Virus record (IMG/VR): IMGVR_UViG_2541047706_000009
Source of the DNA: a virus
Taxonomy: Duplodnaviria > Heunggongvirae > Uroviricota > Caudoviricetes
Length of the DNA stretch: 38,923 nt
Direction: 5' to 3' (one strand)
The notes below the pieces were generated by a model, which was not told the origin of the DNA, did not search any database, and saw nothing but the letters and a program-made list of their open reading frames with translations. A program made the position numbers and the translations under genes. Below, piece by piece: positions 5,444 to 33,226 of the stretch. Each line of letters starts with the position of its first letter. The stretch's first letter is position 1.

Positions 5444-5460
5444 ATTACCTTTATGGTAAT
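5444..5460. promoter_or_regulatory. 17-bp palindromic operator-like site ATTACC-tttat-GGTAAT
   Basis: Perfect inverted repeat with 5-bp spacer in the divergent tailspike / candidate-antirepressor intergenic region; same motif as the sites flanking the repressor gene. Confidence 0.55.
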
Positions 5461-5496
5461 TTGCAAAACGTGCTGGATAGCAAACAAATTATTTGA

Positions 5497-5516
5497 TACT
5501 GTATAAATATACAGTT
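5497..5516. promoter_or_regulatory. LexA (SOS) box
   Basis: TACTGTATAAATATACAGTT matches the consensus TACTGTATATATATACAGTA at 18/20 with perfect CTGT-N8-ACAG; sits 20 nt upstream of the ATG at 5536. Confidence 0.7.
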
Positions 5517-5535
5517 ATTGCATGGAGAAGATAAG

Positions 5536-5793
5536 ATGCAGCGGTATCACTATCCACTGGAAGACGGATTTACCGAAAGGATTCACACGCCGGGAGGCGT
5601 CAGGTCACTGGTGGAGGGATCGCACTTGATGAAATTACTCCGGGATCTCGATAAGGATGGATTTAATGTCGATGGCCCACTTGCCGAACTGACTGCACTG
5701 ATTAACTACGTCACCAGCTCACAGATGTCTATGCAGGATCTGCAAACACATCTCGACTATTGTGCCGAACAATTACGAAAACAAACCACATAA
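5536..5793 (+). CDS. Small SOS-regulated protein, candidate antirepressor
   Basis: 85 aa (MQRYHYPLEDGF..). GGAGA RBS 7 nt upstream; promoter region carries a LexA box and an operator-like palindrome. Function inferred from regulatory context only. Confidence 0.45.
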   Translation: MQRYHYPLEDGFTERIHTPGGVRSLVEGSHLMKLLRDLDKDGFNVDGPLAELTALINYVTSSQMSMQDLQTHLDYCAEQLRKQTT

Positions 5794-5798
5794 AGAAA

Positions 5799-5816
5799 AG
5801 GCCGCGAAAGCGGCCT
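5799..5816 (-). terminator. Hairpin terminator at the end of the late operon
   Basis: aggccgc-GAAA-gcggcct stem-loop, followed on the minus strand by a T-rich tract (cttttcttta). Confidence 0.5.
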
Positions 5817-5828
5817 GTGACATGTCAC
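5817..5828. repeat. Perfect 12-bp palindrome GTGACATGTCAC (copy 1)
   Basis: Identical 12-mer recurs at 26015-26026; this copy overlaps the stop of the 5825-6121 gene and abuts the terminator hairpin. Confidence 0.6.
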
Positions 5829-6121
5829 GTTCCTTTTCTGAATGATAGCCATTCGAAAAATGATGACATTCCACCGCAGACAATAGCAAAGATTATCCCA
5901 CCAAAGAAGAGAAGGCCAGCCTGCCACCACTCCCACCGCCATACATCCACAGCGCCAACCATACCAACAATCGCTCCAACAAATGGAATATAGCTCACGA
6001 TGAAAGCAATGGGGGCTGCAATTATCCAGTGCAATCCCCACCATGATTCAAGCCCAGCCATAATTGCTGCCAACTGAAAAAGACCAACGACGATATAAAC
6101 AATGAATCCTATAGCTTGCAT
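5825..6121 (-). CDS. Small integral membrane protein (3 TM)
   Basis: 98 aa, hydrophobic throughout with Trp-rich loops; AGGTGA RBS; last gene of the late transcription unit. Confidence 0.55.
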   Translation of the reverse strand: MQAIGFIVYIVVGLFQLAAIMAGLESWWGLHWIIAAPIAFIVSYIPFVGAIVGMVGAVDVWRWEWWQAGLLFFGGIIFAIVCGGMSSFFEWLSFRKGT

Positions 6122-6133
6122 GTAGTCACCTAT

Positions 6134-6307
6134 TTACCCAGTAAAAATCAGAGGCCTCCCCTCAATAAGGCTTGCAACAAGAACTAATCCCTGCACAACA
6201 AAGATGAACCAGCAAATAGCTTGAGTCTGAGGGTTAAGAAAATATTTGTAGCGGTCAATAAATAACAGCCCACCAGAAATTATCACACTCAAAATAATTA
6301 AAAACAC
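6134..6307 (-). CDS. Possible small membrane protein (57 aa, GTG start)
   Basis: Hydrophobic ORF below the ORF-track size cutoff, found by manual translation; AGGA RBS 6 nt before GTG, between the 824-aa gene and the 98-aa membrane protein gene. Confidence 0.3.
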   Translation of the reverse strand: MFLIILSVIISGGLLFIDRYKYFLNPQTQAICWFIFVVQGLVLVASLIEGRPLIFTG

Positions 6308-6316
6308 AACACATCC

Positions 6317-8791
6317 TTATTGCGGAGTGACATCCTGAGGTCGCCACCAGTATGTCTGGTTAAACTCTTTCTTCGAACGTTGCTCCATTTTACGCAAATA
6401 GCCTGGTGAAAAATACTCCTGCATCTGGTTAAAGATCATGTGATCAAGAGCTGCCTTCAAGTACCAGAGATTCGCACCTGGCATCAGCCCTTTCCCAAGT
6501 TTCACCAGATCACCACCAGTCTGCTCGTTCTTCCCTTCCACAGCATTTAATGGTATGCCCTGAGCTATCTTCACTACGTCATCAACCAGGCCAGCTACCG
6601 GGCCAAGCATCGACGCCAGCGCGCCGCTTCCGTACCTAGTGTGATCTGACAATAAAAAGTCACCGTAAAGGCCAAGACCACCACCTTTCAGTAGAGCACC
6701 AAGCCAAAATTTAGCAGCATCTTCTCCTGTCATCTCGCGAGGATTACGACCAGACGCAAGGTCGTTAAGTTGCTGCGACAAAGCGCCAAGAATGGTCGTA
6801 CTGGCAATAAACGTCGCAATATATGCCGCACGCCCACCAGCAGACGGCATACCCATAGCGCGTGACCAGTGACGCATAACCACCGAGATAGGGAACGATT
6901 TAAACAGGAAAACACTTCTCGTTAATTCACCTTTCCATGTTCCACGCTGAATACCAGAACCGGTTATCAGTTGCTCACGTGCTCCCGGTGTAATAACAGC
7001 CATATCAACTTCTTCAGTTACGGCACCGAGCAGTTTACGCATTGCCTCAAATTTCACGCGTTCAGGCTCACCAAGATGTTTAACTGCTGAATCAGGGATA
7101 CGCATAATGCTTTCCGGTGTCAGCATCGTATTATTACCGTTCCCCCAGTCCTCCTGTTGCGCCAGCTTCCATACGCTCCAGTCTGTGTCAGTAATCCCTT
7201 TGCTTTTCAGGATACGAAAATCAGAGTCATCGAGGCTACGAAGGTCTGGTGTCCGTGACACTACTTCTCCCAGGCTTCCCATCATGGTTACGCCATAGGC
7301 GCGCTTGTGCGCATCTGACCATGCTGTAAGCCCACTGGCACGCATTACCGCCGTTGCTGCCCAACGAGACACTGACGGCCCCATATTATCCATCGCCCAG
7401 CGGTTAACGCTGCCAAGTAGAGATTCCATTGCCAGACCAGCGCGGCGCGCCCGCGCAAGTTCTGTACGGTTCGTTGGGTCCATAGCTTCAAGCTGGTTGC
7501 GGAATAACTGGTTCATTGGAAGGTTGGTCACCTTCGCAGACAGATACATGGTTCCAAGATCAGAGAACGATGATAGCAACGCGGATCCGAGTCTGCTGGC
7601 AACCAGCCAGTTGCGGATATTGTCAGACCATCGCGCGATGTGCGGATTCGCTACAGGCTGTGTCTTTCCGGAAATAAAGTTGTACAGATTCTCTGTGTTG
7701 TTCGCCAGCCGCTCGACTTTACCGGTTTTACTCGGGTTAGCTGTTGCCGTTTCTGCCTTCACCTGATCAAGAAGAGAGCGGAAAACATGATCGGGGTTTG
7801 GGCCATATGTTTCCACCAGTGCAATATCTTTACTGATACCTTCCAGGTGACCGACCATGATTTCCCATAGAGAGCGATCGCCATAAAGTTGCTGATATTG
7901 CAGATATGAATCTGCATCTTTGAAATGTATCTGTCGTGATGCATTACCACGGTTAGCACGTGCGCCGGAAATTCGCATGCCGGTATCAGTAAGCTTATTC
8001 AGCCCACCAGTGGCGATTGTGTTATAAGCTTCTCCAAGAAATGCAGACAACTCGGCATCGTTCATCAGTTGTCCATCGGCTCGGATATAATATTTGCGAT
8101 CCAGCTTACCTATAACATCGCTAACCCACTTATCCTTTGATACCGCCCCAACCTTTTCCATAGAATGATGTTGAGGGATCCCCCAGTTTTCGAGATAGCC
8201 AATGTCCCCACCAGCATCATTAAACCGGCGGCGCAGTAGCTCTGTCACTTCTCTCCACGCCTTAGCACCTTTTCTTGCTTTAGCATTGCCAGTATTTTGC
8301 CCCCGCATTTCATATACCAGATCACGTACGCCCGCTTCATCTTCAAACAGACCAAAAAAGCGAGGATCAACTGCTTCGAATGCCTCCTGCAATTGACTCA
8401 ATGCATAATCACGGGTGGCTTTTGTTCTGGATTCAACAGAGAGGAAATTCGATTTACCGTCTGCATTAAAAGCAATAGTACGGTTAAGAGCGCCAAGTTT
8501 CCCATCAGCCCCTTGATAGCTATTGATAAATTTATCCAATCTCTGACGTGCGGCTATAGTGAGGGTCACACGACGTTTCTTTAATGCCGCTTCTCGCTGT
8601 AATTCTTCAGATGCCAATTGTGCTGCACGATATAGCCGCTCTGATTCGGAAAGTTGTCTCCACGACATCGGGTCATCACGAGCAATGGAGCGCATATTTC
8701 GATAAATGCGGTCTTCAATGTTCTGTATTTCTCGCGCCGTTAACGTGCGCTGCGCCGCCTGCTGGACCGCTTGTATACATTCCTGTCTCAT
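6317..8791 (-). CDS. Large internal virion / DNA-ejection protein
   Basis: 824-aa ORF in the block of large ORFs between the tubular proteins and the tailspike, the position of podovirus ejection proteins; no specific motif recognised. Confidence 0.55.
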   Translation of the reverse strand: MRQECIQAVQQAAQRTLTAREIQNIEDRIYRNMRSIARDDPMSWRQLSESERLYRAAQLASEELQREAALKKRRVTLTIAARQRLDKFINSYQGADGKLGALNRTIAFNADGKSNFLSVESRTKATRDYALSQLQEAFEAVDPRFFGLFEDEAGVRDLVYEMRGQNTGNAKARKGAKAWREVTELLRRRFNDAGGDIGYLENWGIPQHHSMEKVGAVSKDKWVSDVIGKLDRKYYIRADGQLMNDAELSAFLGEAYNTIATGGLNKLTDTGMRISGARANRGNASRQIHFKDADSYLQYQQLYGDRSLWEIMVGHLEGISKDIALVETYGPNPDHVFRSLLDQVKAETATANPSKTGKVERLANNTENLYNFISGKTQPVANPHIARWSDNIRNWLVASRLGSALLSSFSDLGTMYLSAKVTNLPMNQLFRNQLEAMDPTNRTELARARRAGLAMESLLGSVNRWAMDNMGPSVSRWAATAVMRASGLTAWSDAHKRAYGVTMMGSLGEVVSRTPDLRSLDDSDFRILKSKGITDTDWSVWKLAQQEDWGNGNNTMLTPESIMRIPDSAVKHLGEPERVKFEAMRKLLGAVTEEVDMAVITPGAREQLITGSGIQRGTWKGELTRSVFLFKSFPISVVMRHWSRAMGMPSAGGRAAYIATFIASTTILGALSQQLNDLASGRNPREMTGEDAAKFWLGALLKGGGLGLYGDFLLSDHTRYGSGALASMLGPVAGLVDDVVKIAQGIPLNAVEGKNEQTGGDLVKLGKGLMPGANLWYLKAALDHMIFNQMQEYFSPGYLRKMEQRSKKEFNQTYWWRPQDVTPQ

Positions 8792-8796
8792 TTAAT

Positions 8797-10599
8797 TTAA
8801 CCTCTCAAGAAACACGCCACAGCGACATCAAACAGGCTGGAATCCTGTATTGCCTGCTCACTTTCCCTGTTCGCTTCATCCAGTACTTCACGCGCGCTGC
8901 GCGATTGTGGATTACCATCATCATCCAGCACGGTGATTATCATGTCAGGTGATTCAAGCAGCGAGTCTTCAGCTATGCGCAGATCAATATCTCCTGCCTG
9001 ATCCGCCATCATTTTTTGTTCTGCCTGTTGCAATATTTTATCAGGCTCAAAAGGAGCTACTTCGTCTGGCGTCCTGACCTCTGCTGTTTTATAGAATGAA
9101 ACAGCCTGAGCATTAAGTTCACTTTCTGCCTGCTGTCTCCGAGCCAGTTCTGCTCGAGCTTCAAAAAACTGACCGCCAGGCTCATGCGGTGCCAACGCGT
9201 TACGAGAAAATTCCAGGCGTTCTTGTGCCTGCCGGATTCGTTGGTCAATATCGCGAAGTCTGGCCTGTTTATCTGATCGAGCACGAGACAAAGCTTTACC
9301 GCTACCGGTTGGCTCTTCTGCAAGAATTTGTGCACGCTGTTCAGTGAGATTTTCAATAATTCGTTGGCTATTAGCGATTTCAGACTGGTAAACCTGTCTA
9401 TCTCCACGCGGCAAAAGCTGCGCGGCCTGTTCTTCAAGCAACCGATTTTCTATAGCGCGCGCCGTTACTCCATCATCTACAGATGACAGAGCCTCATTAA
9501 CTGCCTGAGACAGCAGACTCTTGCGCCTAGGAATTTCACTGAAAGATGCAGACTCAACAATGCTGGCAACGTCTACAGGTCTCCCCTGGCTAACATCAGA
9601 CATAGCTTTTCGCAGAGCCTGAATGTGAGAATTGCGCGAAAGCACGTTGATCGGCACGCCGGGAGAAATATCAATTTCAGCATGATGAGCGGCATTCGCC
9701 GCCAGTGCAGCATCGACATCAACTGGTGAAAAATTGGGGGTGCTTGTAGCCTCACCGCGAGAGTTAATAAATCTGCCGACACCACCAAACGCCACCCCAA
9801 GAACAGCATCAATAGCAATTGCCTGTCGATCCAACACATCATACTGGTTAGCCATTTCGCTATAGCCACCATCACGAAGCGTTTTTGCAGTAAGCCCACG
9901 CTGTGCCATACCGAACGCAATATTTGTACCTGCGGCATAGGCAATATCTGGCGTTGCACGTACTGCTGTTGCTGCGGCGCGTCGCACTGAACTTTCACCC
10001 GTCCGCGCAAGCTGAGCCGCCACACCTTCCGCCAGCGCACCACCAGCACGTAACCCGAGGCTCATAGGGATCAGTGTTCCGGCACCAGCAGTAATACCCT
10101 GCACTAATCCCGCTTCCTGCGCCGTCCTGAAATCAACACCCTGTGCTGTCAGCCGTTCAAACTCAGAAAAACCCTGTAGCGAAGTTACCGCCGCAGCACC
10201 TCCGACCGGACCACCGAGCGTTGTACCGATAACAGCCTGCCCGCCCATATCGAACAACCCATAAAGAACCTGCCCGGCGGTTCCGGTTGTCGCGGCATCA
10301 GGCGTCAGCCGCTTAACCTGCTGCTCTGCTAGTTTTCTCTGCTCGGCAATGTATGAAACTGAAGTGTCATTGAGCGAGGTGTTTTCGTTAACAAACTGAG
10401 CAATCGGGGATACGATTTTATCCATCCCTGCCCAGAGCAACTGATCTGGCTTTGCCACCAGCCCGGAGTACAAACCAGACAATGCCGCTCCTACAGCATT
10501 GTCGAAAAAACCAACATCGCTGTTAAAGCCAACTGGATTTGATGCTGCTTCGTCAAGCTGCTGATTCTGGTTTACTTGATTAAGGCCAAAGTAACTCAT
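8797..10599 (-). CDS. Internal virion / ejection protein
   Basis: 600 aa, Gly/Ala-rich N-terminal half and charged coiled-coil C-terminal half; start overlaps the upstream gene stop. Confidence 0.5.
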   Translation of the reverse strand: MSYFGLNQVNQNQQLDEAASNPVGFNSDVGFFDNAVGAALSGLYSGLVAKPDQLLWAGMDKIVSPIAQFVNENTSLNDTSVSYIAEQRKLAEQQVKRLTPDAATTGTAGQVLYGLFDMGGQAVIGTTLGGPVGGAAAVTSLQGFSEFERLTAQGVDFRTAQEAGLVQGITAGAGTLIPMSLGLRAGGALAEGVAAQLARTGESSVRRAAATAVRATPDIAYAAGTNIAFGMAQRGLTAKTLRDGGYSEMANQYDVLDRQAIAIDAVLGVAFGGVGRFINSRGEATSTPNFSPVDVDAALAANAAHHAEIDISPGVPINVLSRNSHIQALRKAMSDVSQGRPVDVASIVESASFSEIPRRKSLLSQAVNEALSSVDDGVTARAIENRLLEEQAAQLLPRGDRQVYQSEIANSQRIIENLTEQRAQILAEEPTGSGKALSRARSDKQARLRDIDQRIRQAQERLEFSRNALAPHEPGGQFFEARAELARRQQAESELNAQAVSFYKTAEVRTPDEVAPFEPDKILQQAEQKMMADQAGDIDLRIAEDSLLESPDMIITVLDDDGNPQSRSAREVLDEANRESEQAIQDSSLFDVAVACFLRG

Positions 10600-17197: not shown

Positions 17198-17523
17198 TCA
17201 CCTCCGTTACCGTACAGAGTTTCAGCCGCTGATTTTTCTACATCCCCGGAAACAGGAGCGATCGCCATATCAGTGATCTGCAGATCGGCGCTGCGATTAA
17301 CGCCATCGTTAGTTTCTCTGGCAGACAGGCCTCGAATAACAGCCTTTGCAGTTATCATCACTTCCGTTCCGACGCCCTTAGGTTGCGCCTTCAGCTTATT
17401 CAATGTGTCGTTATTAAGAGTGATGCACAGCCCCCACGGGTATTCATCGCGAGTTCTGGTTTCTCCGCTCTCATCCTGGTAGCTGTCAGTGCCGGTTTTG
17501 AGGTTTACGAGTTCCATATACAC
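17194..17523 (-). CDS. Hypothetical head/tail-associated protein
   Basis: 109-aa ORF in the structural block; exact start uncertain. Confidence 0.4.
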   Translation of the reverse strand: MYMELVNLKTGTDSYQDESGETRTRDEYPWGLCITLNNDTLNKLKAQPKGVGTEVMITAKAVIRGLSARETNDGVNRSADLQITDMAIAPVSGDVEKSAAETLYGNGGE

Positions 17524-17567
17524 TCCTGCAATAAAGGGGCCGAAGCCCCTTGTCTGATCCGCGAGGC

Positions 17568-18351: not shown

Positions 18352-18402
18352 CTTCTTTCTCCATTAGTGGGTCTGTTACGACCCACAGGTTAATAACAGG
18401 CG

Positions 18403-19403: not shown

Positions 19404-20105
19404 TTATTTGCCATAGAGCACTTCGGCCGCACTACGCTGGCCTTCATTACCACCGGTGACCATGCCATCTTCAGACATCGCCTTTCCGATTTTCACGAAC
19501 GTTTTGACCAGATCAGGGTGATTACCCAGCCCGGTGGTGTTCAGATATTCTTTGAGTTCAGGTGTCCCGAACTGGTCAAGCGCACGCTGTGCGGCGCTAA
19601 GGTTAGAAATCAACTTGTCGCCACCGATTTCTTTGTCAGCTTTTACATCCGCAGCCCACTGCTCGGTTGTTTTCTGCCAGGCTTCTGCCTGGCGCTGCTG
19701 AACACCTGCCAGAATCTTCGGATAAGCATCAACCAGCTTTTGCGCTTGCTCGTTGGTCAGGTTAAGTTCTCGCGCCACCGGCTCGAATTCATTCAACGCT
19801 TCTGTATCCAGCTCTACGCCTTCGGCAGCCTGAAACTCGTACTTCTCAGGCGCACCCTCTGGTTTATCGCCGTCCTTTTTTTCATCCTGCTTATCGTTTT
19901 CAGGCTTTTTGTCATCAGCAGGTTTATCGCCATCAGCAACAGGTTGTGGCTTATCACCTTCCTGTTGTGATGGATCACCAACTGGAGCAGGGTTATCACC
20001 TGCAGGCGCTGACGGTTCTGACGCAGCCGGAGCTGCTCCACCATCGACTGGTTGCTCATTGCAAAGACGGCGATACAGCAAACGCTCAAATAAATTCATG
20101 ATCAC
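19404..20105 (-). CDS. Scaffolding protein
   Basis: 233 aa, highly acidic, Pro/Asp/Lys-rich linker then helical C-terminus; lies between portal and capsid genes. Confidence 0.55.
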   Translation of the reverse strand: MIMNLFERLLYRRLCNEQPVDGGAAPAASEPSAPAGDNPAPVGDPSQQEGDKPQPVADGDKPADDKKPENDKQDEKKDGDKPEGAPEKYEFQAAEGVELDTEALNEFEPVARELNLTNEQAQKLVDAYPKILAGVQQRQAEAWQKTTEQWAADVKADKEIGGDKLISNLSAAQRALDQFGTPELKEYLNTTGLGNHPDLVKTFVKIGKAMSEDGMVTGGNEGQRSAAEVLYGK

Positions 20106-22088: not shown

Positions 22089-22295
22089 TTACTGACCAAG
22101 TAGCGTTTTACCGCTGGTATTAGCGGTTGATGTGTCGCCCTGAGAACCGGTAAGCAGCGTAGAACTACGACCAGCAGCAGCGCGACGGCGACGAGTTTCT
22201 TCGTCGCGGGCATCAACAACGGCGGCATCCTGCTCCTGTGGTGCTGCCTGAACTTCTGGTGTTGCAGGCACTGATGGTGAGCTACCCATGCACAT
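22089..22295 (-). CDS. Small acidic/Arg-rich protein
   Basis: 68-aa ORF with GGAG RBS directly upstream of portal; the overlapping 22076-22315 frame is judged less likely. Confidence 0.3.
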   Translation of the reverse strand: MCMGSSPSVPATPEVQAAPQEQDAAVVDARDEETRRRRAAAGRSSTLLTGSQGDTSTANTSGKTLLGQ

Positions 22296-22363
22296 ATCAA
22301 TGACTCCGTACGCAATTAAATTATTACCAATTTAACCACATATGATTTATTTATCGTAGGAGG

Positions 22364-22401
22364 TTGACATTTAACGCACGAATTATTACCTTTCAGGTAA
22401 C
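22364..22401 (+). promoter_or_regulatory. Promoter-like TTGACA with operator-like palindrome ATTACC-tttca-GGTAAC
   Basis: TTGACA at 22364-22369; palindrome at 22385-22401 overlaps the -10 position. Faces the noncoding region and tRNA. Confidence 0.4.
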
Positions 22402-22419
22402 CAAAAAGTTCATTCCGGT

Positions 22420-22720: not shown

Positions 22721-22721
22721 T

Positions 22722-22960: not shown

Positions 22961-22987
22961 CGCCCGGTTCGCCGGGCATTTTTTTGC
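22961..22987 (+). terminator. Rho-independent terminator
   Basis: cgcccgg-ttcg-ccgggc GC-rich hairpin followed by TTTTTTT. Confidence 0.65.
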
Positions 22988-23000
22988 TTGATGACCGCAA

Positions 23001-23017
23001 ATTACCTTAAAGGTATA
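23001..23017. promoter_or_regulatory. Operator-like palindrome ATTACC-ttaaa-GGTATA overlapping a TATAAT element
   Basis: Half-site ATTACC plus imperfect right half; ggTATAATc lies 4 nt before the moron ATG at 23021. Confidence 0.4.
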
Positions 23018-23020
23018 ATC

Positions 23021-23839
23021 ATGAAAAACTTCAAGGTAATTAGCATGTTTGAATCGTTCAAAGAGCTGTTTTTATCTACTGCCAATACTGCCGTGAATCG
23101 AGCCAAAAACCCTGTGCTTGGTGCTTTTGTTATGTCCTGGTGCGCCTTCAACTGGAAATCAATTCTTTATCTATTTTTTAGCAAATCAAACATAATAGAT
23201 AAAATTTCATATATCTCAGATAACAGCACATGGAAAACTGTTATGTTTTATCCATGCTTATCTGTAATTGCTATCTGCTGCCTATTACCATGGGTAAACA
23301 ATATCATTAACGTATGGCAAGCAAAGCCTCTTGATAATAATGACTCAATCGAAAATCACCTGAAGGCAAGAAAAATCCAGCGTGAAACAAGGCTGCAGAG
23401 GTTATTGGCTAAAAAAGATGTTACATACGACAAAGTTAAGACTGGCGCGGAAAAAGACATCCAAGAGATGAAAGAAGAGATTATTCGTTCAAAGAATAGT
23501 ATGGGGGAATTGACTGCCGAGTTGAAAGCTAAAGATGACGAATTGAGATCCGCCAGTGCTCAGTTAGCAGCTCTAAATCATTCATTAAAAGAGATATCGG
23601 AAACTCTTGGAAGAATGAATGAGGCATATAAGACCCTCCAAAATGATTTCGACGAATACAAACTCAAATACCCTGAAAAATCTCAAATAAAAAGCCTTGC
23701 ACTTGGCAACGGCCAAACAATTAGCAACTTTTTGGAGCAACACAACTTATCCGGATTAAAATCTGGTAAGCCAAACGTTTTTAATAACTTTGGTGTTCTA
23801 TCTGGATTATCAGGTTTCGAGGATAAAAATAAAGACTAA
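23021..23839 (+). CDS. AT-rich moron: membrane-anchored coiled-coil protein
   Basis: 273 aa from ATG 23021 (ORF-track start 22949 trimmed; 22991 also possible). Two N-terminal TM segments then a K/E-rich coiled coil. Visibly lower GC than flanking genes and opposite in strand to the late operon. Confidence 0.6.
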   Translation: MKNFKVISMFESFKELFLSTANTAVNRAKNPVLGAFVMSWCAFNWKSILYLFFSKSNIIDKISYISDNSTWKTVMFYPCLSVIAICCLLPWVNNIINVWQAKPLDNNDSIENHLKARKIQRETRLQRLLAKKDVTYDKVKTGAEKDIQEMKEEIIRSKNSMGELTAELKAKDDELRSASAQLAALNHSLKEISETLGRMNEAYKTLQNDFDEYKLKYPEKSQIKSLALGNGQTISNFLEQHNLSGLKSGKPNVFNNFGVLSGLSGFEDKNKD

Positions 23840-25311: not shown

Positions 25312-25904
25312 TGATTGCCATCCTGACGTTCTTTCAGTCTCTTCCTGGCTGCCGCTATGCGATCAGCAATTGTCACATTCACATTAACATCCAGGCGTTC
25401 TTTGAATGCGTTGACGTCGACGTGCTTACCAATCAGTTCGAGGTTCTTCACCTTGTCAGGCCATTTAATTTTTTTGAGGATTGTCTCTATCGAATCCTCG
25501 TTCATGTTCATGATGGTCGATGACAGATCAAAGCCACTAAGCGTAGTGCGCCAGATTTTCGGCCACTCACGGATTGGTTTAAGGCTCCCATCGTCGTTGA
25601 GGATATCGATCACGTCCATCTGGTCGATCTCCACCAGGCGCATGAGAACGTAATCAGCACTGACGCGCATTCGTTTGTTGCGCTCCTCCATCAACTCGGC
25701 AATCCGTTTTTGAATGCGTTCATCGCGCATCATGACACTGGCTTTAACTGCCGCTGTATTTGGGGAGAATCCTGCGTTAATCGCTGCCTGAGTCTGGTTT
25801 TCAGGCGTTTTGATGTATGACTGGCAATAAGCCTCCTGCATTGCTGTTAGTGGCTTAAATTGCGTTGATTTGCGTTTATAGGTTTTAGGTTCAGCAGGCA
25901 TCAT
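25308..25904 (-). CDS. Terminase small subunit
   Basis: About 198 aa from ATGATG at 25904 with GGTGG RBS (ORF-track start 25982 trimmed because a terminator lies inside the extension). Confidence 0.6.
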   Translation of the reverse strand: MMPAEPKTYKRKSTQFKPLTAMQEAYCQSYIKTPENQTQAAINAGFSPNTAAVKASVMMRDERIQKRIAELMEERNKRMRVSADYVLMRLVEIDQMDVIDILNDDGSLKPIREWPKIWRTTLSGFDLSSTIMNMNEDSIETILKKIKWPDKVKNLELIGKHVDVNAFKERLDVNVNVTIADRIAAARKRLKERQDGNQ

Positions 25905-25911
25905 AACCACC

Positions 25912-25943
25912 GTGGTAATAGTTACCGTTGTGGTAATAGTACC
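25912..25943. repeat. Tandem repeat GTGGTAATAGT(T)ACC x2 in the terminase leader
   Basis: Two adjacent copies separated by gtt; each holds GGTAAT and TACC half-site-like elements. Confidence 0.4.
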
Positions 25944-25946
25944 ATG

Positions 25947-25974
25947 CAAAATAAAGCCGCCATAGTTGGCGGCA
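25947..25974 (-). terminator. Rho-independent terminator upstream of the late operon
   Basis: gccgcc-aactat-ggcggc hairpin followed on the minus strand by tttatttt; about 45 nt upstream of the terminase small-subunit start. Confidence 0.6.
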
Positions 25975-26014
25975 GTATTCAAAACACATCAAATTCATCA
26001 TGCATAATCTACTC

Positions 26015-26026
26015 GTGACATGTCAC
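26015..26026. repeat. Perfect 12-bp palindrome GTGACATGTCAC (copy 2)
   Basis: Identical to the copy at 5817-5828; lies at the stop of the zinc-finger gene, about 40 nt upstream of the late-operon terminator. Confidence 0.6.
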
Positions 26027-27904: not shown

Positions 27905-27905
27905 A

Positions 27906-28466
27906 TCACTCTCCTTTGATGCGAATGCCAGCGGCGCGTGGCACATTAACTTCCACGATGCGCACTGTTGGTTTGTACATCTCAATCGCTGTCAGCCAGT
28001 CAGCTCCTGTCATGCGCTTTTCCGCATCGCCATTAGTCCACTGAACCGGTACACCAATAGCCTTCATCGCGATTTCTATTTCCCCGGCAATGGCGCTTTT
28101 TCCGCAACCAGTAAAACCAGAAACAACGACAAGAACTTCACCTTTGGCTGGTTTTATTTCCCGTGCTTCCAGTTCTGCAATGCGCTTTTTGTCTGCTTCC
28201 CGTTCATCCAGTAGTGCCAGCACGGTAGCTGGACTGGCTGCGGCGATGAATTCAGCATTGGCCTGCTGTTCCATTTGGAAATCTTCATCGAAACCGCTTT
28301 CAGGATGCGCTCCTTCAATTCTGCAAATGGGAATATATCCAGCAGCCTCGCGATGAATTAGTGCATCATCACCATCAAATCGGCCCTCTCCATATTCGAG
28401 CGACCACACACCACACGTTGCTTTCTCTGCCTTTTCACGCAGTGCCTGATAGTCAATTTCGCTCAC
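27906..28466 (-). CDS. Ead/Ea22-like protein
   Basis: 186 aa; N-terminal MSEIDYQALREKAEKAT and internal ..ATVLALLDEREADKKRIAELEARE.. resemble the Ead/Ea22 family of lambdoid prophages (from memory). Confidence 0.45.
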   Translation of the reverse strand: MSEIDYQALREKAEKATCGVWSLEYGEGRFDGDDALIHREAAGYIPICRIEGAHPESGFDEDFQMEQQANAEFIAAASPATVLALLDEREADKKRIAELEAREIKPAKGEVLVVVSGFTGCGKSAIAGEIEIAMKAIGVPVQWTNGDAEKRMTGADWLTAIEMYKPTVRIVEVNVPRAAGIRIKGE

Positions 28467-28948
28467 TGTTTGCCCTCCTTCATAAAAATAATCCAGTGGG
28501 TCTTGTCACCTTTTCCTGTTCGTTGACCGATAACAGGCTTTCTGTCGGTCAGTGCCAATATCTGGCGAACAGGTATTTGCGTTTCATTCCATTTAAAAAT
28601 CAGAACGCCGGATGGACGCAACACACGAAAGGCTTCTTTAAATCCCTGCCGCAAATCATCACGCCAGGTATCTTTATTCAGTCGTCCATATTTCTTTCCC
28701 ATCCAGGCGTTATCACCAACACGCTCAAGATGCGGAGGGTCGAATACAACCATCGAAAAGGATGCGTCTGCAAATGGTAGTGCACGAAAATCAGCTATCA
28801 GGTCAGGACTGATAATCAGGCGTCGTCCATCACATAATGTGTGCTCTTCCTTTCTGATATCGCTAAATATCGCCCGGTCGTCATTCTTATCGAACCAGAA
28901 CATGCGACTGCCACAGCACATGTCGAGGATTGCTGCATTTCCAGTCAC
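28463..28948 (-). CDS. DNA methyltransferase (amino-methyltransferase type)
   Basis: About 161 aa from GTG with AAGGAGG RBS; SAM-binding-like block ILDMCCGSRMFWF and catalytic DPPH tetrapeptide (VVFDPPHL). Start overlaps the upstream stop (GTGA). Confidence 0.55.
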   Translation of the reverse strand: MTGNAAILDMCCGSRMFWFDKNDDRAIFSDIRKEEHTLCDGRRLIISPDLIADFRALPFADASFSMVVFDPPHLERVGDNAWMGKKYGRLNKDTWRDDLRQGFKEAFRVLRPSGVLIFKWNETQIPVRQILALTDRKPVIGQRTGKGDKTHWIIFMKEGKQ

Positions 28949-29610
28949 TGGCTGCCTCCTTTGCGAATCTGTTCCGCCCATTCTTCAAGGGATTTTTCCG
29001 CATATTCACCGGACAGGCCATCAATCGGATGCGGTTCATTAGCCAACTCTTCTTTCGCTGACAAAATCATGCGTGTAACGTCGAAAACTTCACGCAAAGA
29101 CTTATTGATAAATCCGTGATTGAACGCAGCAGCAAGACGGCTGGCGGTATAGTTAATCCCCTCGTTGCGTGCTTCCGCACGAATTTCAGACAGGAAAGCA
29201 TCGGTGGCCGGGGTTTCAACACGGATGCTGTCGCGCAAGATGAAAAATGCATTGAGCATTCCAGTCTCTGGCGCTTCATCCTGATGCTTCTCATACGCAT
29301 CAAGAGCCTTCATCATCTCAGGTCCGAATGGTTGAGGTTGCACATACTTCAGCCCCGCATTCTCCACTGCCAGCGCCGAAAACTTATCGTGTGCCAACTT
29401 AACAGCTGCATCAGCCTGCTTAATTGACTCAATCGCTTTCTGTTGGTCTTCGGCCAGCGCATTAGCACGCACCAGTTGCACTTCCAGTTGCGTTGCCAAA
29501 TCGCTGATCAGCTTTGCCACACTACGCATATCAACGGCACCACATTCTGCTTTCAGTTCCGAAGCCATCTCATGCCCGGCGGCAACTAACCCTTTGATAT
29601 TACTTTCCAT
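28945..29610 (-). CDS. Hypothetical protein coupled to the methyltransferase
   Basis: 221-aa helical/acidic ORF whose stop overlaps the methyltransferase start. Confidence 0.4.
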   Translation of the reverse strand: MESNIKGLVAAGHEMASELKAECGAVDMRSVAKLISDLATQLEVQLVRANALAEDQQKAIESIKQADAAVKLAHDKFSALAVENAGLKYVQPQPFGPEMMKALDAYEKHQDEAPETGMLNAFFILRDSIRVETPATDAFLSEIRAEARNEGINYTASRLAAAFNHGFINKSLREVFDVTRMILSAKEELANEPHPIDGLSGEYAEKSLEEWAEQIRKGGSQ

Positions 29611-29671
29611 CTTTACCCTCGCTTATCCACATAACTTATTGATTACATTGATAACTAAAAAGATCGTCGAT

Positions 29672-30016
29672 TCAGAACTTTTCGATGTTCCAGCCACCAC
29701 CTGCTTTCTTTGGTTTAACCGTTACCCCGATGATTCGGAACGGATACTGATCTGCGGCGACTTTGGTTTTCACCCTGGCGTCGTCGGTCCAGAAACCTTT
29801 CACTTCGTGCAGTTCCATCTCGCCGGTGGCGAGCATCACAGCAAAATCGGGCGTATAGAACGTGTTGTCAGCTAACCGCAGCTTGATACCCTCAAATCGA
29901 TACCAGACGATTTCTCCTGCACGTTTACGCAGCTCAAGGTGCTGGCAATACGCAGATTCTGTTTTGTTCATCTGACCTGTTTTGAGTCGACCAAGAGCCT
30001 GTATCTGTTTTCTCAT
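29672..30016 (-). CDS. DUF1064-family protein
   Basis: 114 aa; pattern KTE..Y...LEL.K.AGEI..........L.L......Y.PDF.V......E.HEVKG..T matches DUF1064 phage proteins. Confidence 0.5.
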   Translation of the reverse strand: MRKQIQALGRLKTGQMNKTESAYCQHLELRKRAGEIVWYRFEGIKLRLADNTFYTPDFAVMLATGEMELHEVKGFWTDDARVKTKVAADQYPFRIIGVTVKPKKAGGGWNIEKF

Positions 30017-30018
30017 GA

Positions 30019-30035
30019 TTTACCTCTGAGGTAAT
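30019..30035. promoter_or_regulatory. Operator-like palindrome TTTACC-tctga-GGTAAT
   Basis: Lies 3 nt upstream of the DUF1064 start codon and includes its RBS. Confidence 0.5.
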
Positions 30036-30080
30036 TAAAAACCACATAAGACACGAAATCAATAGATTTTAGAATATTTT

Positions 30081-30097
30081 ATTACCTAACAGGTAAT
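30081..30097. promoter_or_regulatory. Operator-like palindrome ATTACC-taaca-GGTAAT
   Basis: Perfect site between the P-like gene stop and the DUF1064 gene. Confidence 0.5.
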
Positions 30098-30133
30098 TGT
30101 CGAGGCGTAAAAAAATGCGCTATCGCGCTGGTA

Positions 30134-30934
30134 TTACTTGATAAATCCTGCCGCCTTTCCCCGCCTGTATTCCTCCATCAGCCACTGCGCCGGTGTTATT
30201 CCCCCAAGGGTGGCGGCGTTAGGCATGCACCCGAAACTTCGCCCTGGTGGATGGTAAACGTCTCTCCCTGTGTCCGGAGGTGTACTCATGGGTTCTGGCT
30301 TTGCCTGTATGCTGATCACCGGATCGGGTATCTGCTGTCCGGAAGCCACCTTTTTCGCCCAATCATCGAGCAGCCTGCGCGCGTGTTTCTCAACCTCAAT
30401 CTCGCTAAGCTGGCGCTGATACATTGCACGGCGGGTATCACATACGACCCAGTACATAACCGGATGTCGCCACGGGAATCTTTCGGGACCACCAGGATAT
30501 AAACTTTTTTCCTTGCTGTACCGGTGAAACTCCGCCATCACATCGTCAATGGTGACGCCAAGAACCATCTTGCTGTCTTTGCACCACTTGATAAATTGCC
30601 CTGGAGACGGCCAGAACGGAGATTCACTGGCGCGGGCGTGGCGCATACCAGCAGAAACCTGTTCACGGGTTCGGATCCCCCCTTCGGCAAACGCAGCAAT
30701 CCACTGCTGTTTTGCAGCAACTTCCTGCTCTGGCGTCTTCAGGTTGGTTACCACTGCCGCCGGAAACAGTTGTTTCAGCTGTTTAAAAAGGGCATCAACA
30801 AGCCTCTCTGCTGACATGTTCACCACATTGTCATTGTTGACGTACTGATGCTCATAACCTGACATGCGAGAAAGGGCTTCTCCGTCACGGTTTTGTATCG
30901 CGGTAAAAACGTTGTTCACAAGAAATCCTCCCAT
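30134..30934 (-). CDS. Replication protein P-like (helicase loader)
   Basis: 266 aa; block ..MRHARASESPFWPSPGQFIKWC.. matches lambda P ..MRVARRQNRPFLPSPGQFVAWC.., and the N-terminal region also aligns. Confidence 0.75.
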   Translation of the reverse strand: MGGFLVNNVFTAIQNRDGEALSRMSGYEHQYVNNDNVVNMSAERLVDALFKQLKQLFPAAVVTNLKTPEQEVAAKQQWIAAFAEGGIRTREQVSAGMRHARASESPFWPSPGQFIKWCKDSKMVLGVTIDDVMAEFHRYSKEKSLYPGGPERFPWRHPVMYWVVCDTRRAMYQRQLSEIEVEKHARRLLDDWAKKVASGQQIPDPVISIQAKPEPMSTPPDTGRDVYHPPGRSFGCMPNAATLGGITPAQWLMEEYRRGKAAGFIK

Positions 30935-31755
30935 GCTTCAGGGCTGTTCCAGTGCGGAACGTTGTTATCAGGTAATGTTGATTGCTTCTGTCTGCTAATC
31001 TGCAGCCGCCTTGCCAGCTTCTGCTCCCACTGTGCCTGATGGTATGCCTTACCCTCAGCCATCCAGTAAATTCTGAACTCTGCAAGTTCCTGTGCCGTTG
31101 GCAGACTGTCCAGGTAGATCCCCTGCAATGAGCTTTTCCGAAGAAAGTCATCTGATGGCTGCCATTGTTCATGCATGACAAATTTGCCTAATTGCCCTGG
31201 CCCACCAGGAGGAACAAAGTTATTCATCACGGCGTTGTTTGCGCCGGGGTCATGAGGCACAGAATCCCCGCTTTTTGTCCTGCTCTCCCTCTCTTGGTTA
31301 AATGACTGGTTATATGACTGGTTCTGGATCCCGTTTTTGGGATCATTCAACATCCCGTTTTTGGGATCATTCAACATCCCGTTTTTGGGATCATTCAACA
31401 TCCCGTTTTTGGGTATATTCCCGTTTTCGGTAACATTACCGTTTTCGGGTTCATTACCCCCCTCCCGGTTGCCTTTAATGTTCCCGTTTTTGGTTATATT
31501 AAGAGAGAAAACCCGTACTCTTTTCGTCGCCCCCTTTCTCTCTCCGGTATCTGAAATAAGCCCCATTTTCATGAGCGATATAAGCCCGGCCTGCACGGTT
31601 TTTTTATTCAGGCAAGTGTCTTTAACGAGGCGTTCTATGCTGGGGTAGCAGAGGTTATATTCATCGGCTCTGTCAGCCATCGAGAGCAGTATGAGCTTTA
31701 ATGATGAGCTACCTGGATCTGTCTCCCAGGCCCAATCTGTTGCATGTCTGCTCAT
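30916..31755 (-). CDS. Replication initiator O-like protein containing the origin iterons
   Basis: 279 aa; helical N-terminal domain; the central region encodes the repeated PKNGMLND peptide from the iterons; directly upstream of the P-like gene; GGAG RBS. Confidence 0.65.
   Translation of the reverse strand: MSRHATDWAWETDPGSSSLKLILLSMADRADEYNLCYPSIERLVKDTCLNKKTVQAGLISLMKMGLISDTGERKGATKRVRVFSLNITKNGNIKGNREGGNEPENGNVTENGNIPKNGMLNDPKNGMLNDPKNGMLNDPKNGIQNQSYNQSFNQERESRTKSGDSVPHDPGANNAVMNNFVPPGGPGQLGKFVMHEQWQPSDDFLRKSSLQGIYLDSLPTAQELAEFRIYWMAEGKAYHQAQWEQKLARRLQISRQKQSTLPDNNVPHWNSPEAWEDFL
31328..31458. repeat. Origin iterons: 3 perfect 24-bp repeats plus degenerate copies
   Basis: ATCCCGTTTTTGGGATCATTCAAC at 31328-31351, 31352-31375 and 31376-31399, then degenerate CCCGTTTTTGG / CCGTTTTCGG copies and an AT-rich stretch; each perfect unit contains GATC. 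Confidence 0.7.
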
Positions 31756-31770
31756 GATTAATCTCCGCTA

Positions 31771-31971
31771 TCAGCTTGAGTGTTGTGGGGAGGAATTAAT
31801 CATGATCTGCTTAATCTCTGCCCTGATGCGACGGTTTGATTCCATGGTGCACTCAACACAGTGTCCGTTGTAAACCCAGCGTTCACTGTCATGTCCGTGC
31901 TTACATGGTTTTCCGGTGTAGTAGCGTTTAAGTCCGCGCTTTGCGGCATCAATACGTGTAATGATTTCCAT
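31771..31971 (-). CDS. Small zinc-ribbon protein (CII-position gene)
   Basis: 66 aa from ATG 31971 (MEIITRIDAAKRG..) with C-x-H..C-x-x-C motif; sits between the cro-like and O-like genes. Confidence 0.4.
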   Translation of the reverse strand: MEIITRIDAAKRGLKRYYTGKPCKHGHDSERWVYNGHCVECTMESNRRIRAEIKQIMINSSPQHSS

Positions 31972-32050
31972 GGTAAGCCCTGTTATTAGTATTGGGATTA
32001 CGGTTATTTTGTGCTGACACAAAAAAAAGATCAACCATATTTGGTTTTTT

Positions 32051-32067
32051 ATTACCTTTGAGGTACG
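32051..32067. promoter_or_regulatory. Operator-like palindrome ATTACC-tttga-GGTACG
   Basis: Between the zinc-ribbon gene and the terminator that follows the cro-like gene. Confidence 0.4.
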
Positions 32068-32080
32068 AATAGATATGAAA

Positions 32081-32100
32081 AGACCGCCGGATGGCGGTCT
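32081..32100 (-). terminator. tR1-like terminator after the cro-like gene
   Basis: agaccgcc-ggat-ggcggtct hairpin followed on the minus strand by ttttcat. Confidence 0.55.
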
Positions 32101-32121
32101 ACAGAGGGTTGTGGCTGGATA

Positions 32122-32352
32122 TCATGAGTAGAAGAAGTATGCCAGTTCTGCTTTTGAGCGCAGCCATTGTCTTGTTTTACAGGCTTTAAAAAGCCCATTC
32201 ATCAATACCTTACCTGGCATTTTGCGCTTACCTGTTAAGTGAGTCTGGATATAGTGACTCGTCGTTCCGGCTTCCTGTGCGAAGGCTTCACGCTCATCCG
32301 GAGTAAGTGCAAGCCAGTGCTTTTTGAAATCGAAATGTCCGTTATCGCTCAT
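32122..32352 (-). CDS. Cro-like early regulator (first gene of rightward-type operon)
   Basis: 76-aa basic protein divergent from the repressor gene across an intergenic region with three operator-like palindromes. Confidence 0.45.
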   Translation of the reverse strand: MSDNGHFDFKKHWLALTPDEREAFAQEAGTTSHYIQTHLTGKRKMPGKVLMNGLFKACKTRQWLRSKAELAYFFYS

Positions 32353-32387
32353 AGCTATTGCCTGATATTTATTTCAGATAATAAATA

Positions 32388-32452
32388 TTCACCCATAAGG
32401 TAACAAAAATCAAGGATAGTTACCTGTGGGGTGCATTTACCTGTTGGGTAAT
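32388..32452. promoter_or_regulatory. OR-like region with three operator-like sites and divergent promoters
   Basis: TTCACC-cataa-GGTAAC (32388-32404), GTTACC-tgtgg-GGTGCA (32419-32435, weaker) and TTTACC-tgttg-GGTAAT (32436-32452). On the minus strand, a TTGATT -35 and GAATAT -10 flank the first site. Confidence 0.6.
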
Positions 32453-32506
32453 ATTGCTTTAAATTGAATCATCTACTGATTCATATATGAGGCGATTTTC
32501 CAGAAA

Positions 32507-33091
32507 ATGAAAAGTATCCAGGACGTCCGCAGGCAAAATCTCAACGACTTGATCGACCGTGAATGCAATGGTGTTCAGACGCGGATGGCAGAAAAACTTG
32601 GAACTCAGGCAAATCTGGTAAACCGCTGGGCTCTTGGCAAGAAGGTTATCGGCGACCAGGTTGCACGAAAAATTGAAGCTGCCGCCAATAAACCCCGTAA
32701 CTGGCTTGATATTGATCGTTCGCTTTCTCAGGAGGGTTTTCAGCCTGTCGGCCCGAGCGATATAGGTCAGCTGGCGGCTCACAACCTGGAACGCTGGATG
32801 AGCGAAAGCCGCGACCTTTCAACACAGGGAAAACTTCACCGCGCATCCGGCGTCGCCCAGGTGACAATCAGCCGCCTGTTAAACAATGAGGTCAGCGTTT
32901 CCATTTCCACCCTGGAGAATGTTGCATCCGCATTCGGGCGTCACGGCTATGAATTACTGATTCACCCGCACGACCCTGCGACCATCAACTATGATCGCTC
33001 GCGCTACGCATTGTTACCCGAAACCGAGAAAGCAAAGATCGAAAGTTACATTGAATTTGTCATCAACCAGAACGAAAAAAACAAACAATAA
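32507..33091 (+). CDS. Putative prophage repressor, tandem HTH, no S24 peptidase domain
   Basis: 194 aa with two helix-turn-helix-like segments (..VQTRMAEKLGTQANLVNRWALGKK.. and ..ASGVAQVTISRLLNNEVSVSISTLENVASAFG..); no Ala-Gly/Ser-Lys autocleavage signature. Flanked by operator clusters and followed by a terminator. Confidence 0.55.
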   Translation: MKSIQDVRRQNLNDLIDRECNGVQTRMAEKLGTQANLVNRWALGKKVIGDQVARKIEAAANKPRNWLDIDRSLSQEGFQPVGPSDIGQLAAHNLERWMSESRDLSTQGKLHRASGVAQVTISRLLNNEVSVSISTLENVASAFGRHGYELLIHPHDPATINYDRSRYALLPETEKAKIESYIEFVINQNEKNKQ

Positions 33092-33112
33092 AACCATATT
33101 TTTCAGTAAGTA

Positions 33113-33136
33113 AGCCGCCTTATGGCGGCTTTTTTA
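33113..33136 (+). terminator. Rho-independent terminator after the repressor gene
   Basis: agccgcc-ttat-ggcggct hairpin followed by TTTTTT. Confidence 0.65.
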
Positions 33137-33147
33137 TTGTCTATTCG

Positions 33148-33226
33148 ATTACCTAACGGGTAATTTTTTTAACTCATATCTATTGACATCAAACCATATA
33201 CGCATAATTATTACCTCAACGGTAAC
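33148..33226 (+). promoter_or_regulatory. OL/pL-like region with two operator-like sites and TTGACA
   Basis: ATTACC-taacg-GGTAAT (33148-33164), TTGACA at 33183-33188, ATTACC-tcaac-GGTAAC (33210-33226). Confidence 0.55.

Follow-up and report, generated by a model that had tools for sequence, protein, structure and literature searches.

Does a short palindrome that recurs from the immunity region to the late genes of a prophage mark the operators of one repressor, and how would that repressor act at such scattered positions? We addressed this question in a window of 38,923 nucleotides (IMG/VR record IMGVR_UViG_2541047706_000009; all positions refer to it unless another genome is named), which is a phiV10/epsilon15-type (Uetakevirus) prophage of the Escherichia coli phiV10 lineage. 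A sequence-only reading had listed 11 sites and proposed that a single repressor silences the whole prophage through them, in a manner resembling the stoperators of mycobacteriophage L5. All 11 sites are present at their positions, but the list was incomplete, as it missed a tandem pair at terS, and our set therefore comprises 13 sites: 12 with at most one mismatch and one with two. These sites, which on the evidence of sequence are very probably the operators of the prophage's immunity repressor and are called operators below, lie among the following elements.

3178-5340, minus strand: tail-fibre gene
5444-5460: single operator, ATTACCTTTATGGTAAT, exact, between the divergent tail-fibre gene and ant
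5499-5514, plus strand: LexA box, CTGTATAAATATACAG, perfect, upstream of ant, kept in five genomes
5536-5790, plus strand: ant, small antirepressor, 85 aa
22089-22295, minus strand: p06, head/portal operon
22385-22401: single operator, exact, upstream of the head/portal operon
22991-23019: promoter-like site ATGACC-17-TATAAT before orf272
23001-23017: single operator, one mismatch, over the spacer and -10 of the orf272 promoter-like site
23021-23839, plus strand: orf272, accessory gene, phrog_4780, function unknown
25901, minus strand: ATG start codon of terS
25903-25937: tandem operator pair, 25921-25937 exact and 25903-25919 with one mismatch, 18 bp start to start
30019-30097, minus strand: operator pair, O1 30081-30097 and O2 30019-30035, both exact, bracketing the promoter behind the replication genes
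32051-32067: single operator, one mismatch, upstream of p42 and the replication genes
32122-32352, minus strand: cro-like gene, 76 aa, phrog_35, transcriptional repressor
32388-32452: three operators between the cro-like and repressor genes, 32388-32404 with one mismatch, 32419-32435 with two, 32436-32452 exact
32507-33091, plus strand: Rep, immunity repressor, 194 aa; DNA-binding domain N-terminal, oligomerisation/Ant-binding domain C-terminal
33148-33226, plus strand: operator pair at the early-left promoter, O1 33148-33164 and O2 33210-33226, both exact
33183-33211, plus strand: early-left promoter, -35 TTGACA at 33183-33188 and -10 AATTAT at 33206-33211

Enrichment and conservation of the palindrome

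The operators share the consensus ATTACC-N2-W-N2-GGTAAT, a 17-bp palindrome whose logo is two-fold symmetric. Its core, TTACC-N5-GGTAA, occurs eight times exactly in the window, where 0.01 occurrences are expected, and 13 times with up to one mismatch (0.58 expected). Intergenic enrichment against shuffled sequence had been set as a check on the motif: non-coding DNA amounts to 2456 bp (6.3% of the window) and holds 12 of the 12 operators with at most one mismatch (0.08 expected, 300 shuffles), including all eight exact sites (0.00 expected, 300 shuffles within non-coding segments). Since shuffled non-coding DNA yields next to no such matches, the motif is real and not a product of chance. The 36.5 kb of coding DNA contains no exact site and one match with a single mismatch, at 5162-5178 inside the tail-fibre gene, which is consistent with chance. 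The claim that every site is intergenic holds if terS starts at ATG 25901.

When all 5-mer hyphenated palindromes were counted without bias, TTACC-N5-GGTAA came first in the window as well as in four relatives. Furthermore, across 12 syntenic sites in three divergent lineages, half-site columns were identical in 93% of cases, compared with 35% for the N5 spacer and 44-52% for the flanks; conserved half-sites around a free spacer form the pattern expected of a dimeric binding site. It could be argued that AT-rich intergenic DNA yields the motif through its composition, or that the motif serves as a promoter element and not as a protein site, given that GC content is 0.42 in non-coding and 0.50 in coding DNA and that the outer motif bases resemble -10 hexamers. 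This explanation is refuted by the palindrome ranking, by the shuffles within non-coding DNA and by the difference between half-site and spacer conservation, and we give it practically no weight.

Occurrence in relatives and earlier records

Related phages of E. coli, Salmonella, Enterobacter and Klebsiella carry the motif too, in syntenic places. Alignment across five genomes was possible for the sites at terS, the head operon, tail fibre/ant, behind cro, between rep and cro, at early-left and behind the replication genes, and Klebsiella phage BUCT711 has operators at the same positions. Operator 5444-5460, for example, has syntenic counterparts in phiV10, epsilon15, SPC32H, Tyrion and BUCT711, while the terS tandem pair is kept in phiV10, epsilon15, SPC32H and Tyrion.

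The scattered operators are a rediscovery, because the record of the depositors of Salmonella phage epsilon15 (AY150271.2 / NC_004775.2) already marks seven scattered copies of the motif as repressor-binding. All seven read (A)TTACC-N5-GGTAAT and are syntenic with sites in the window; they include the counterparts of the tail-fibre/ant operator (19895-19911), the head-operon operator (2931-2947), the terS pair (12-27), the site behind the replication genes (35906-35922) and the two early-left sites (32554-32570 and 32616-32632). The epsilon15 record marks seven of about 15 sites, leaving the three rep-cro sites and the second member of each pair unmarked, and public records of the phiV10 lineage annotate no operators. 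A full-text literature search for the motif returned only primer noise.

Among phages whose portal is 60% or more identical, all have a Rep of the same family, so this group offers no relative with a differing repressor for a covariation test. Sodalis phiSG1, the next relative, could not serve for this comparison; it is a degenerate mosaic of P22 and epsilon15.

Operators, promoters and terminators

Most of the operators coincide with sigma-70-like promoters or terminator-promoter junctions. The overlap with promoter elements or ribosome-binding sites proposed in the sequence-only reading was borne out at 23001, 30019/30081, 32388 and 33210: promoter-like elements are covered at 23001, 32388 (the spacer of TTGTTA-17-TATTAT, a promoter reading towards cro) and 33210, and ribosome-binding sites at 30019, where O2 lies over that of a DUF1064 gene (29672-30016), and at 25903, where the pair covers that of terS. 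Four clusters stand directly 3' of intrinsic terminators, namely those at 33148 (rep terminator, 33112-33131), 32051 (beginning 13 nt beyond the cro-like gene's terminator, 32081-32100), 30081 and 25921 (terminator 25956-25973). Sixteen nt downstream of operator 32051-32067 lies a conserved weak promoter candidate, TTGATC-17-CAAAAT. The middle operator of the rep-cro region, 32419-32435 (GTTACCTGTGGGGTGCA), is weak and is credible only because it adjoins a strong site and is kept in phiV10 and Tyrion.

Two promoters, at 33148/33210 and 30081/30019, are bracketed by operator pairs spaced 62 bp start to start. In this layout 18 nt separate O1 from the -35 downstream of it, and O2 overlaps both -10 and start site; five genomes have this geometry unchanged at both promoters, around a -35 that is itself conserved, and the early-left arrangement is shared with phiV10, epsilon15, SPC32H and Tyrion. 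The minus-strand order at 30019-30097 is O1, 18 nt, TTGATT (30062 to 30057), 17 nt and TTTAAT (30039 to 30034), the last overlapping O2 by 2 nt. This promoter, TTGATT-17-TTTAAT, is conserved; TCGACA-16-TAAAAT, which looks strong and lies over operator 30081, was rejected as the main promoter, as phiV10, epsilon15 and Tyrion do not keep its -35.

At the terS, p06 and tail-fibre sites we found no convincing sigma-70 promoter at the classical repression distance. At the tail-fibre/ant operator, each candidate -10 is some 50-60 bp downstream, and at operator 22385-22401 a conserved leader block has its 5' end. These three sites weigh against the general scheme proposed below, and simple promoter occlusion is a candidate mode of repression at them.

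Of the 13 operators, eight lie outside the immunity region, as the comparison with lambda had implied. The proposal of a single repressor silencing the prophage stands to the extent that operators flank rep and head most transcription units; it does not extend to literally every unit, as the lysis cassette of this prophage has no operator. The lysis-cassette operator of phiV10, epsilon15 and Tyrion is absent from the window at up to two mismatches, and only an ATTACC half-site is left. The operator of orf272 shares its 17-mer (ATTACCTTAAAGGTATA) with an integrase-proximal site of phiV10, but the flanks are unrelated and give no evidence of a duplication. PADLOC matches of orf272 to DndD, JetC and LmuB are weak coiled-coil matches and do not count as evidence of a defence gene.

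Rep, Ant and the cro-like protein

We attribute the operators to the immunity system because three of them lie between rep and the cro-like gene and two more on the other side of rep. The probable assignment to Rep itself draws on database annotation, homology and secondary citations. Over its full length Rep is 41% identical to the Rep of Salmonella phage SPC32H (196 residues), and it matches PDB 5D50_A with E=5e-41; among solved structures, the only matches are the SPC32H Rep entries 5D50 and 5D4Z, in which the Rep/Ant pair has already been solved. Two papers (PMC9638917; PMC9986798) describe SPC32H Rep as binding palindromic DNA as a tetramer, with DNA-binding dimers formed across different dimers. 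Inactivation of that protein by Ant, and not by self-cleavage, is stated in PMC9638917 and PMC7380047. Pfam finds only helix-turn-helix domains in the Rep of the window, and no Peptidase_S24 domain. Its putative recognition helix, NLVNRW, is invariant in five lineages at an overall identity of only 41-44%; this agrees with the constancy of the operator motif among the phages of E. coli, Salmonella, Enterobacter and Klebsiella. In the ZX5 paper, which maps no operators, lysis-gene transcripts fall by more than 99.9% when the repressor is overexpressed.

Ant shares 88% identity with its SPC32H counterpart and matches PDB 5D50 chain E (E=3e-47). The expectation that the repressor also silences the antirepressor found no support here: a perfect LexA box lies over the likely -10 of ant, and operator 5444-5460 is about 50 bp further upstream, adjoining the divergent tail-fibre promoter. 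Judged by its sequence, the LexA box is part of the induction circuit and not a repressor site; for SPC32H, direct control of ant by LexA is documented, as cited in PMC7380047.

The cro-like protein raises the question of whether the scattered sites serve mainly this or another phage regulator, tuning or shutting lytic transcription. It is 58-84% identical among relatives and thus more conserved than Rep, and its helix-turn-helix segment AGTTSHYIQTHLT is nearly invariant genus-wide, with one T-to-V change in BUCT711. Moreover, Cro and repressor share operators in classical switches, and sequence alone cannot separate the two. However, the depositors of epsilon15 give the repressor as the ligand of the sites, both the invariant Rep helix and the spacing of the pairs at 62 bp agree with a tetramer that carries two DNA-binding dimers, and a 76-aa Cro-type protein is not expected to bridge 62 bp. 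We therefore regard a mainly non-Rep role of the sites as very improbable. The cro-like protein probably binds the same operators; given its equally conserved helix-turn-helix, it could be their chief ligand or a further one.

Comparison with other repressor systems

Compared with epsilon15 and SPC32H, the window has the same 17-bp motif at syntenic positions, homologous Rep and Ant proteins, a LexA box at ant and a Rep without an autocleavage domain. It differs from them in an extra operator, at orf272, and in the loss of the lysis-cassette operator. The three operators between the divergent repressor and cro-like genes, which overlap divergent promoters, and the second cluster at the early-left promoter recall OR and OL of lambda. 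Unlike lambda, the prophage also has operators at late, replication and accessory units, its early-left promoter is placed after rep and is transcribed in the same direction as that gene, and its Rep has no domain for RecA-dependent self-cleavage, induction proceeding by antirepressor. The repressors of phage P1 (C1) and Streptomyces phage phiC31 also control many promoters via scattered operators, and these proteins are unrelated to Rep. The phiC31 sites are likewise 17-bp inverted repeats, whereas the P1 operators are asymmetric, and we know of no fixed 62-bp promoter bracket in either phage.

With L5 and the cluster A phages the prophage shares one immunity repressor with sites genome-wide, including late regions, and global silencing. 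In a stoperator-like mode, repressor bound at scattered sites would stop elongating RNA polymerase, and several features lend themselves to it: late and accessory regions contain scattered sites, four clusters come right after intrinsic terminators, and the terS pair stands between a terminator and a start codon with no good sigma-70 promoter, where it might form a second barrier to read-through. However, an L5 stoperator is a 13-mer without symmetry that is oriented with transcription and bound by a monomer, and such sites block elongation from short gaps within operons (PMC9283540). The sites in the window are palindromic, neither asymmetric nor oriented, and most coincide with conserved promoter elements or terminator-promoter junctions. 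None was found in the four gaps inside operons (17518-17567, 18352-18402, 29611-29671 and 35659-35707). The L5 repressor is a monomer with two DNA-binding domains, whereas the Rep homologue of SPC32H is described as a palindrome-recognising tetramer. The likeness to stoperators thus did not hold, and we consider this mode very improbable.

Proposed mechanism

We infer that Rep binds the sites, bridges the paired ones as a tetramer and represses at each of them. The genome consists of short transcription units, most of which open with one or two operators, often right after the preceding terminator, and one repressor very probably acts directly on most of them. In the lysogen, Rep on its operators would block initiation directly at each promoter, without a lambda-style cascade; the units affected would be early-left, cro/early-right, replication, the accessory block, terS-terL, the head operon, the tail-fibre gene and orf272. 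A single Rep tetramer, through its two DNA-binding dimers, may clamp both sites of a 62-bp pair, as the bracketing pairs fit a tetrameric repressor homologous to that of SPC32H (PDB 5D50). LexA would repress ant, and after DNA damage Ant would strip Rep from all operators at once; during lytic growth, the cro-like protein would probably occupy the same sites. Taken as a whole, this explanation, with the palindrome as the Rep operator, direct repression at most units, clamping of paired sites and induction by Ant, appears to us highly probable.

A more tentative extension, which we regard as possible though doubtful, is a genus-wide promoter template of the form O1-18 nt-(-35)-17 nt-(-10)/O2, in which each promoter is clamped by a tetramer, Ant switches on all of them in one step and relatives may be cross-immune. 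O2 would then be a full site at early promoters and a half-site at late and post-cro promoters. The suggestion of cross-immunity comes from an operator code that is unchanged across four host genera although Rep identity falls to about 41%.

Implications for annotation and engineering

In this enteric temperate phage, the immunity repressor apparently acts directly at the head of nearly every unit, including packaging, head and tail, and not just through a cascade of early genes. The principle was recorded by the epsilon15 depositors and the mechanism has been solved for SPC32H, so no new question is opened; the possible genus-wide template, in which the repressor would also control structural and packaging operons directly, may still lack a full description in earlier work. 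The operator map is useful for engineering phiV10 reporter phages and for annotating phiV10-type prophages in E. coli O157 and other hosts, whose records lack operators and mis-start terS. The conserved ATG at 25901 is the terS start annotated in epsilon15, SPC32H and Tyrion, whereas the phiV10 annotation begins at an upstream TTG (25982), which yields an open reading frame running through the terminator hairpin and both operators.

Identity and extent of the prophage

By megablast and tblastn, the window groups with the phiV10/epsilon15 temperate podophages of the genus Uetakevirus, sharing 97-99% identity with phiV10, phiv142-3 and PAS61, and it runs in reverse orientation to the phiV10 record. 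The attachment core AATCATTCCCACTCAAT, taken from PMC9782041, lies at 1164-1180 and is the left boundary of the prophage, beyond which host DNA continues; the window ends on the right (38923) at the integrase start codon. It therefore holds nearly the entire prophage plus ~1.1 kb of host DNA. The main features are as follows.

3178-5340 (-), tail-fibre gene
5536-5790 (+), ant, small antirepressor gene
22089-22295 (-), p06, head/portal operon
25901 (-), ATG of terS
30081 and 30019 (-), operators O1 and O2 behind the replication genes
32122-32352 (-), cro-like gene
32507-33091 (+), candidate immunity repressor, Rep
33148 and 33210 (+), operators O1 and O2, early-left

A probable operator, dispersed and conserved

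The sequence-only reading had placed a 17-bp palindrome, (A/T)TTACC-N5-GGTAA(T/C), at 11 or more intergenic sites and assigned them to one repressor. All 11 coordinates were correct, and the total now extends to 13; a tandem pair at 25921-25937 and 25903-25919 had been absent from that list. Exact matches to TTACC-N5-GGTAA number 8 in the window against 0.01 expected, and sites with at most one mismatch 13 against 0.58. The site at 32419-32435, the middle one of those separating the repressor and cro-like genes, departs from the motif at two positions and owes its credibility solely to adjoining a strong site and being conserved. On a gene map built from phiV10 proteins, non-coding DNA amounts to 2456 bp (6.3% of the window) and contains 8 of 8 exact and 12 of 13 one-mismatch-or-better sites, whereas shuffled non-coding segments yielded 0.00 and 0.08. 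When all hyphenated palindromes with 5-mer arms and spacers of 0-9 nt were counted without bias, this motif ranked first in the window and four relatives; the logo extends it to ATTACC-NN-W-NN-GGTAAT, with A/T at either end and W in the middle. Its distribution over intergenic DNA is uneven: operators occupy 8 of the 16 non-coding segments of at least 40 bp, and none lies in the four gaps inside operons.

Equal enrichment was found in phiV10, epsilon15, SPN1S/SPC32H, Enterobacter phage Tyrion and Klebsiella phage BUCT711 (13-18 sites each at up to one mismatch, ~0.5 expected), at the same syntenic positions despite Rep divergence to 41-44% identity. Across 12 syntenic sites in the window, epsilon15 and Tyrion, half-site columns are 93% identical, the N5 spacer 35% and the flanks 44-52%; conserved half-sites around a free spacer are the pattern that would be expected of a dimeric protein-binding site. 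The NLVNRW segment of Rep is invariant, as is most of its N-terminal domain, and the helix-turn-helix segment of the cro-like protein is also nearly invariant.

In the epsilon15 record, both in RefSeq and as deposited in GenBank, seven protein_bind features bear the label "repressor / lysogeny". One each is found upstream of terS and of gp3, between gp19 and the tail-fibre gene, and behind the replication gene; the remaining three are on the early-left side of the repressor gene. Each has the sequence (A)TTACC-N5-GGTAAT; the scattered operator was therefore already recognised in the genus type phage and is a known feature of this genus. Our additions are modest, namely a conserved 62-bp bracket and conservation across four host genera.

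Also cited in that record is PDB 5D50, a structure of Rep bound to Ant from Salmonella phage SPC32H. The window repressor is homologous to SPC32H Rep over its full length (41% identity; 5D50_A, E=5e-41) with no Peptidase_S24 domain, and the 85-aa product of 5536-5790 is 88% identical to SPC32H Ant (5D50_E, E=3e-47). Secondary sources (PMC9638917, PMC9986798 and PMC7380047) describe SPC32H Rep as binding palindromic sites as a tetramer whose DNA-binding dimers are drawn from different dimers, Ant as breaking this tetramer, and ant as controlled by LexA. Ant binds the Rep C-terminal domain, and the mismatch in divergence between these partner proteins (Ant 88%, Rep 41%) is unexpected.

Promoter anatomy and the stoperator comparison

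In all five genomes, the early-left promoter and the one behind the replication genes are built alike. O1 is followed after 18 nt by a conserved -35 (TTGACA in the former; TTGATT or TTGAAA in the latter) and then, 17 nt further on, by a -10 that shares its final two bases with the start of O2. The starts of O1 and O2 are separated by 62 bp, roughly six helical turns, and from this geometry we infer that a single Rep tetramer could hold both, enclosing the promoter. The post-cro, head-operon and tail-fibre loci have a full O1-type operator and then, 50-62 bp downstream, only a half-site by a conserved -10-like hexamer, which tentatively suggests the same plan with a weak O2. The proposed overlap with promoter spacers holds for 32388 (cro promoter) and 23001 (promoter of orf272, an accessory gene), and that with ribosome-binding sites for 30019 and 25903. 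At four clusters (after rep, cro and the P-like replication gene, and before terS), an intrinsic terminator is followed by an operator within ~20 nt, so that the genome looks like a string of terminator-operator-promoter modules.

The terS pair directly follows its terminator and covers the terS ribosome-binding site. Its seemingly intragenic position stems solely from the phiV10 annotation, in which terS begins at a TTG further upstream (window 25982); in the SPN1S record the gene begins at position 1. Such a start would carry the ORF through the terminator hairpin and two operators, and the epsilon15, SPC32H and Tyrion records use a conserved ATG just past the operators. The true start is likely this ATG at 25901 (MPAEPK...).

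The L5 stoperators to which the sites had been likened are 13-mers without symmetry, each bound by a monomeric protein that has two DNA-binding domains. Their orientation follows transcription, and they occupy gaps inside operons, where elongation is stopped (PMC9283540). We looked for three L5 stoperator features in the window and found none. Roadblock action is possible at one locus, the terS pair, where we saw no convincing sigma-70 promoter. The likeness to L5 lies in the outcome, the probable silencing of a whole prophage by one repressor, whereas the means here are ordinary operators repeated at many promoters. Of the sequence-only reading, the single-repressor regulon is supported and the stoperators are not. 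Phage P1, with its dispersed C1 operators, and phiC31, whose repressor has 17-bp inverted repeats as its sites, come closer in logic.

Accessory, antirepressor and lysis genes

The gene orf272 (23021-23839) occupies the place of phiV10 p03 and belongs to a PHROG family without assigned function. Because an operator covers its promoter-like site, it would more probably be an accessory gene of the lytic phase than one expressed in the lysogen.

On the phiV10-protein gene map, the Bro-N antirepressor-like gene (phiV10 p23) is absent from the window, and the true antirepressor homologue here is the small ant gene. A perfect LexA box, CTGTATAAATATACAG, stands in front of ant at 5499-5514 and is conserved in all relatives; direct control by LexA is documented in the SPC32H homologue and would apply here too. 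The 5444 operator is ~50 bp upstream of the likely ant -10 and is placed at least as well for the divergent tail-fibre promoter.

The lysis region (3089-3177) lacks the O-antigen acetylase gene, and of the operator found ahead of the lysis cassette in phiV10, epsilon15 and Tyrion it has only an ATTACC half-site. The tail-fibre gene abuts the lysis genes, and these may be co-transcribed with it.

Additional sequence elements

A conserved operator-like site, ATTACCYTAAAGGTATA, lies ~57 bp upstream of int in all relatives; since the window ends at the integrase start codon, this site falls just outside it. RecE and RecT (33899-35658) occupy two overlapping ORFs that differ in frame, as is also the case in epsilon15 and Tyrion. 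The phiV10 annotation instead has a single 586-aa RecE-RecT fusion, perhaps owing to a frameshift in one of these sequences. Within the DnaT-like replication-initiator gene, a 24-bp unit, TGGGATCATTCAACATCCCGTTTT, is repeated three times in tandem (31338-31405); the repeats are probably origin iterons, as in the lambda O gene.

A near-palindromic element, (A/T)CCATATRTGGTT, recurs inside or beside promoters downstream of operators (5405-5412, 22334-22341, 30040-30047, 32033-32040 and 33192-33199), and it takes the perfect form AACCATATATGGTT at the lysis promoters of phiV10 and Tyrion. For ATRTGGTT there are 7 occurrences, with 2.6 expected; the element could be a promoter part or a second-factor site.

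A second conserved palindrome, GTGACATGTCAC, marks the ends of late transcription units, always by an intrinsic terminator: after the last structural gene, terL, and the gp49/p55-like regulator just upstream of terS. It lies at 5817-5828 and 26015-26026 in the window, 2262 and 19493 in phiV10, and 2142, 19517 and 39612 in epsilon15. Its core is expected ~0.04 times per genome. One possibility is that a late regulator or antiterminator acts there.
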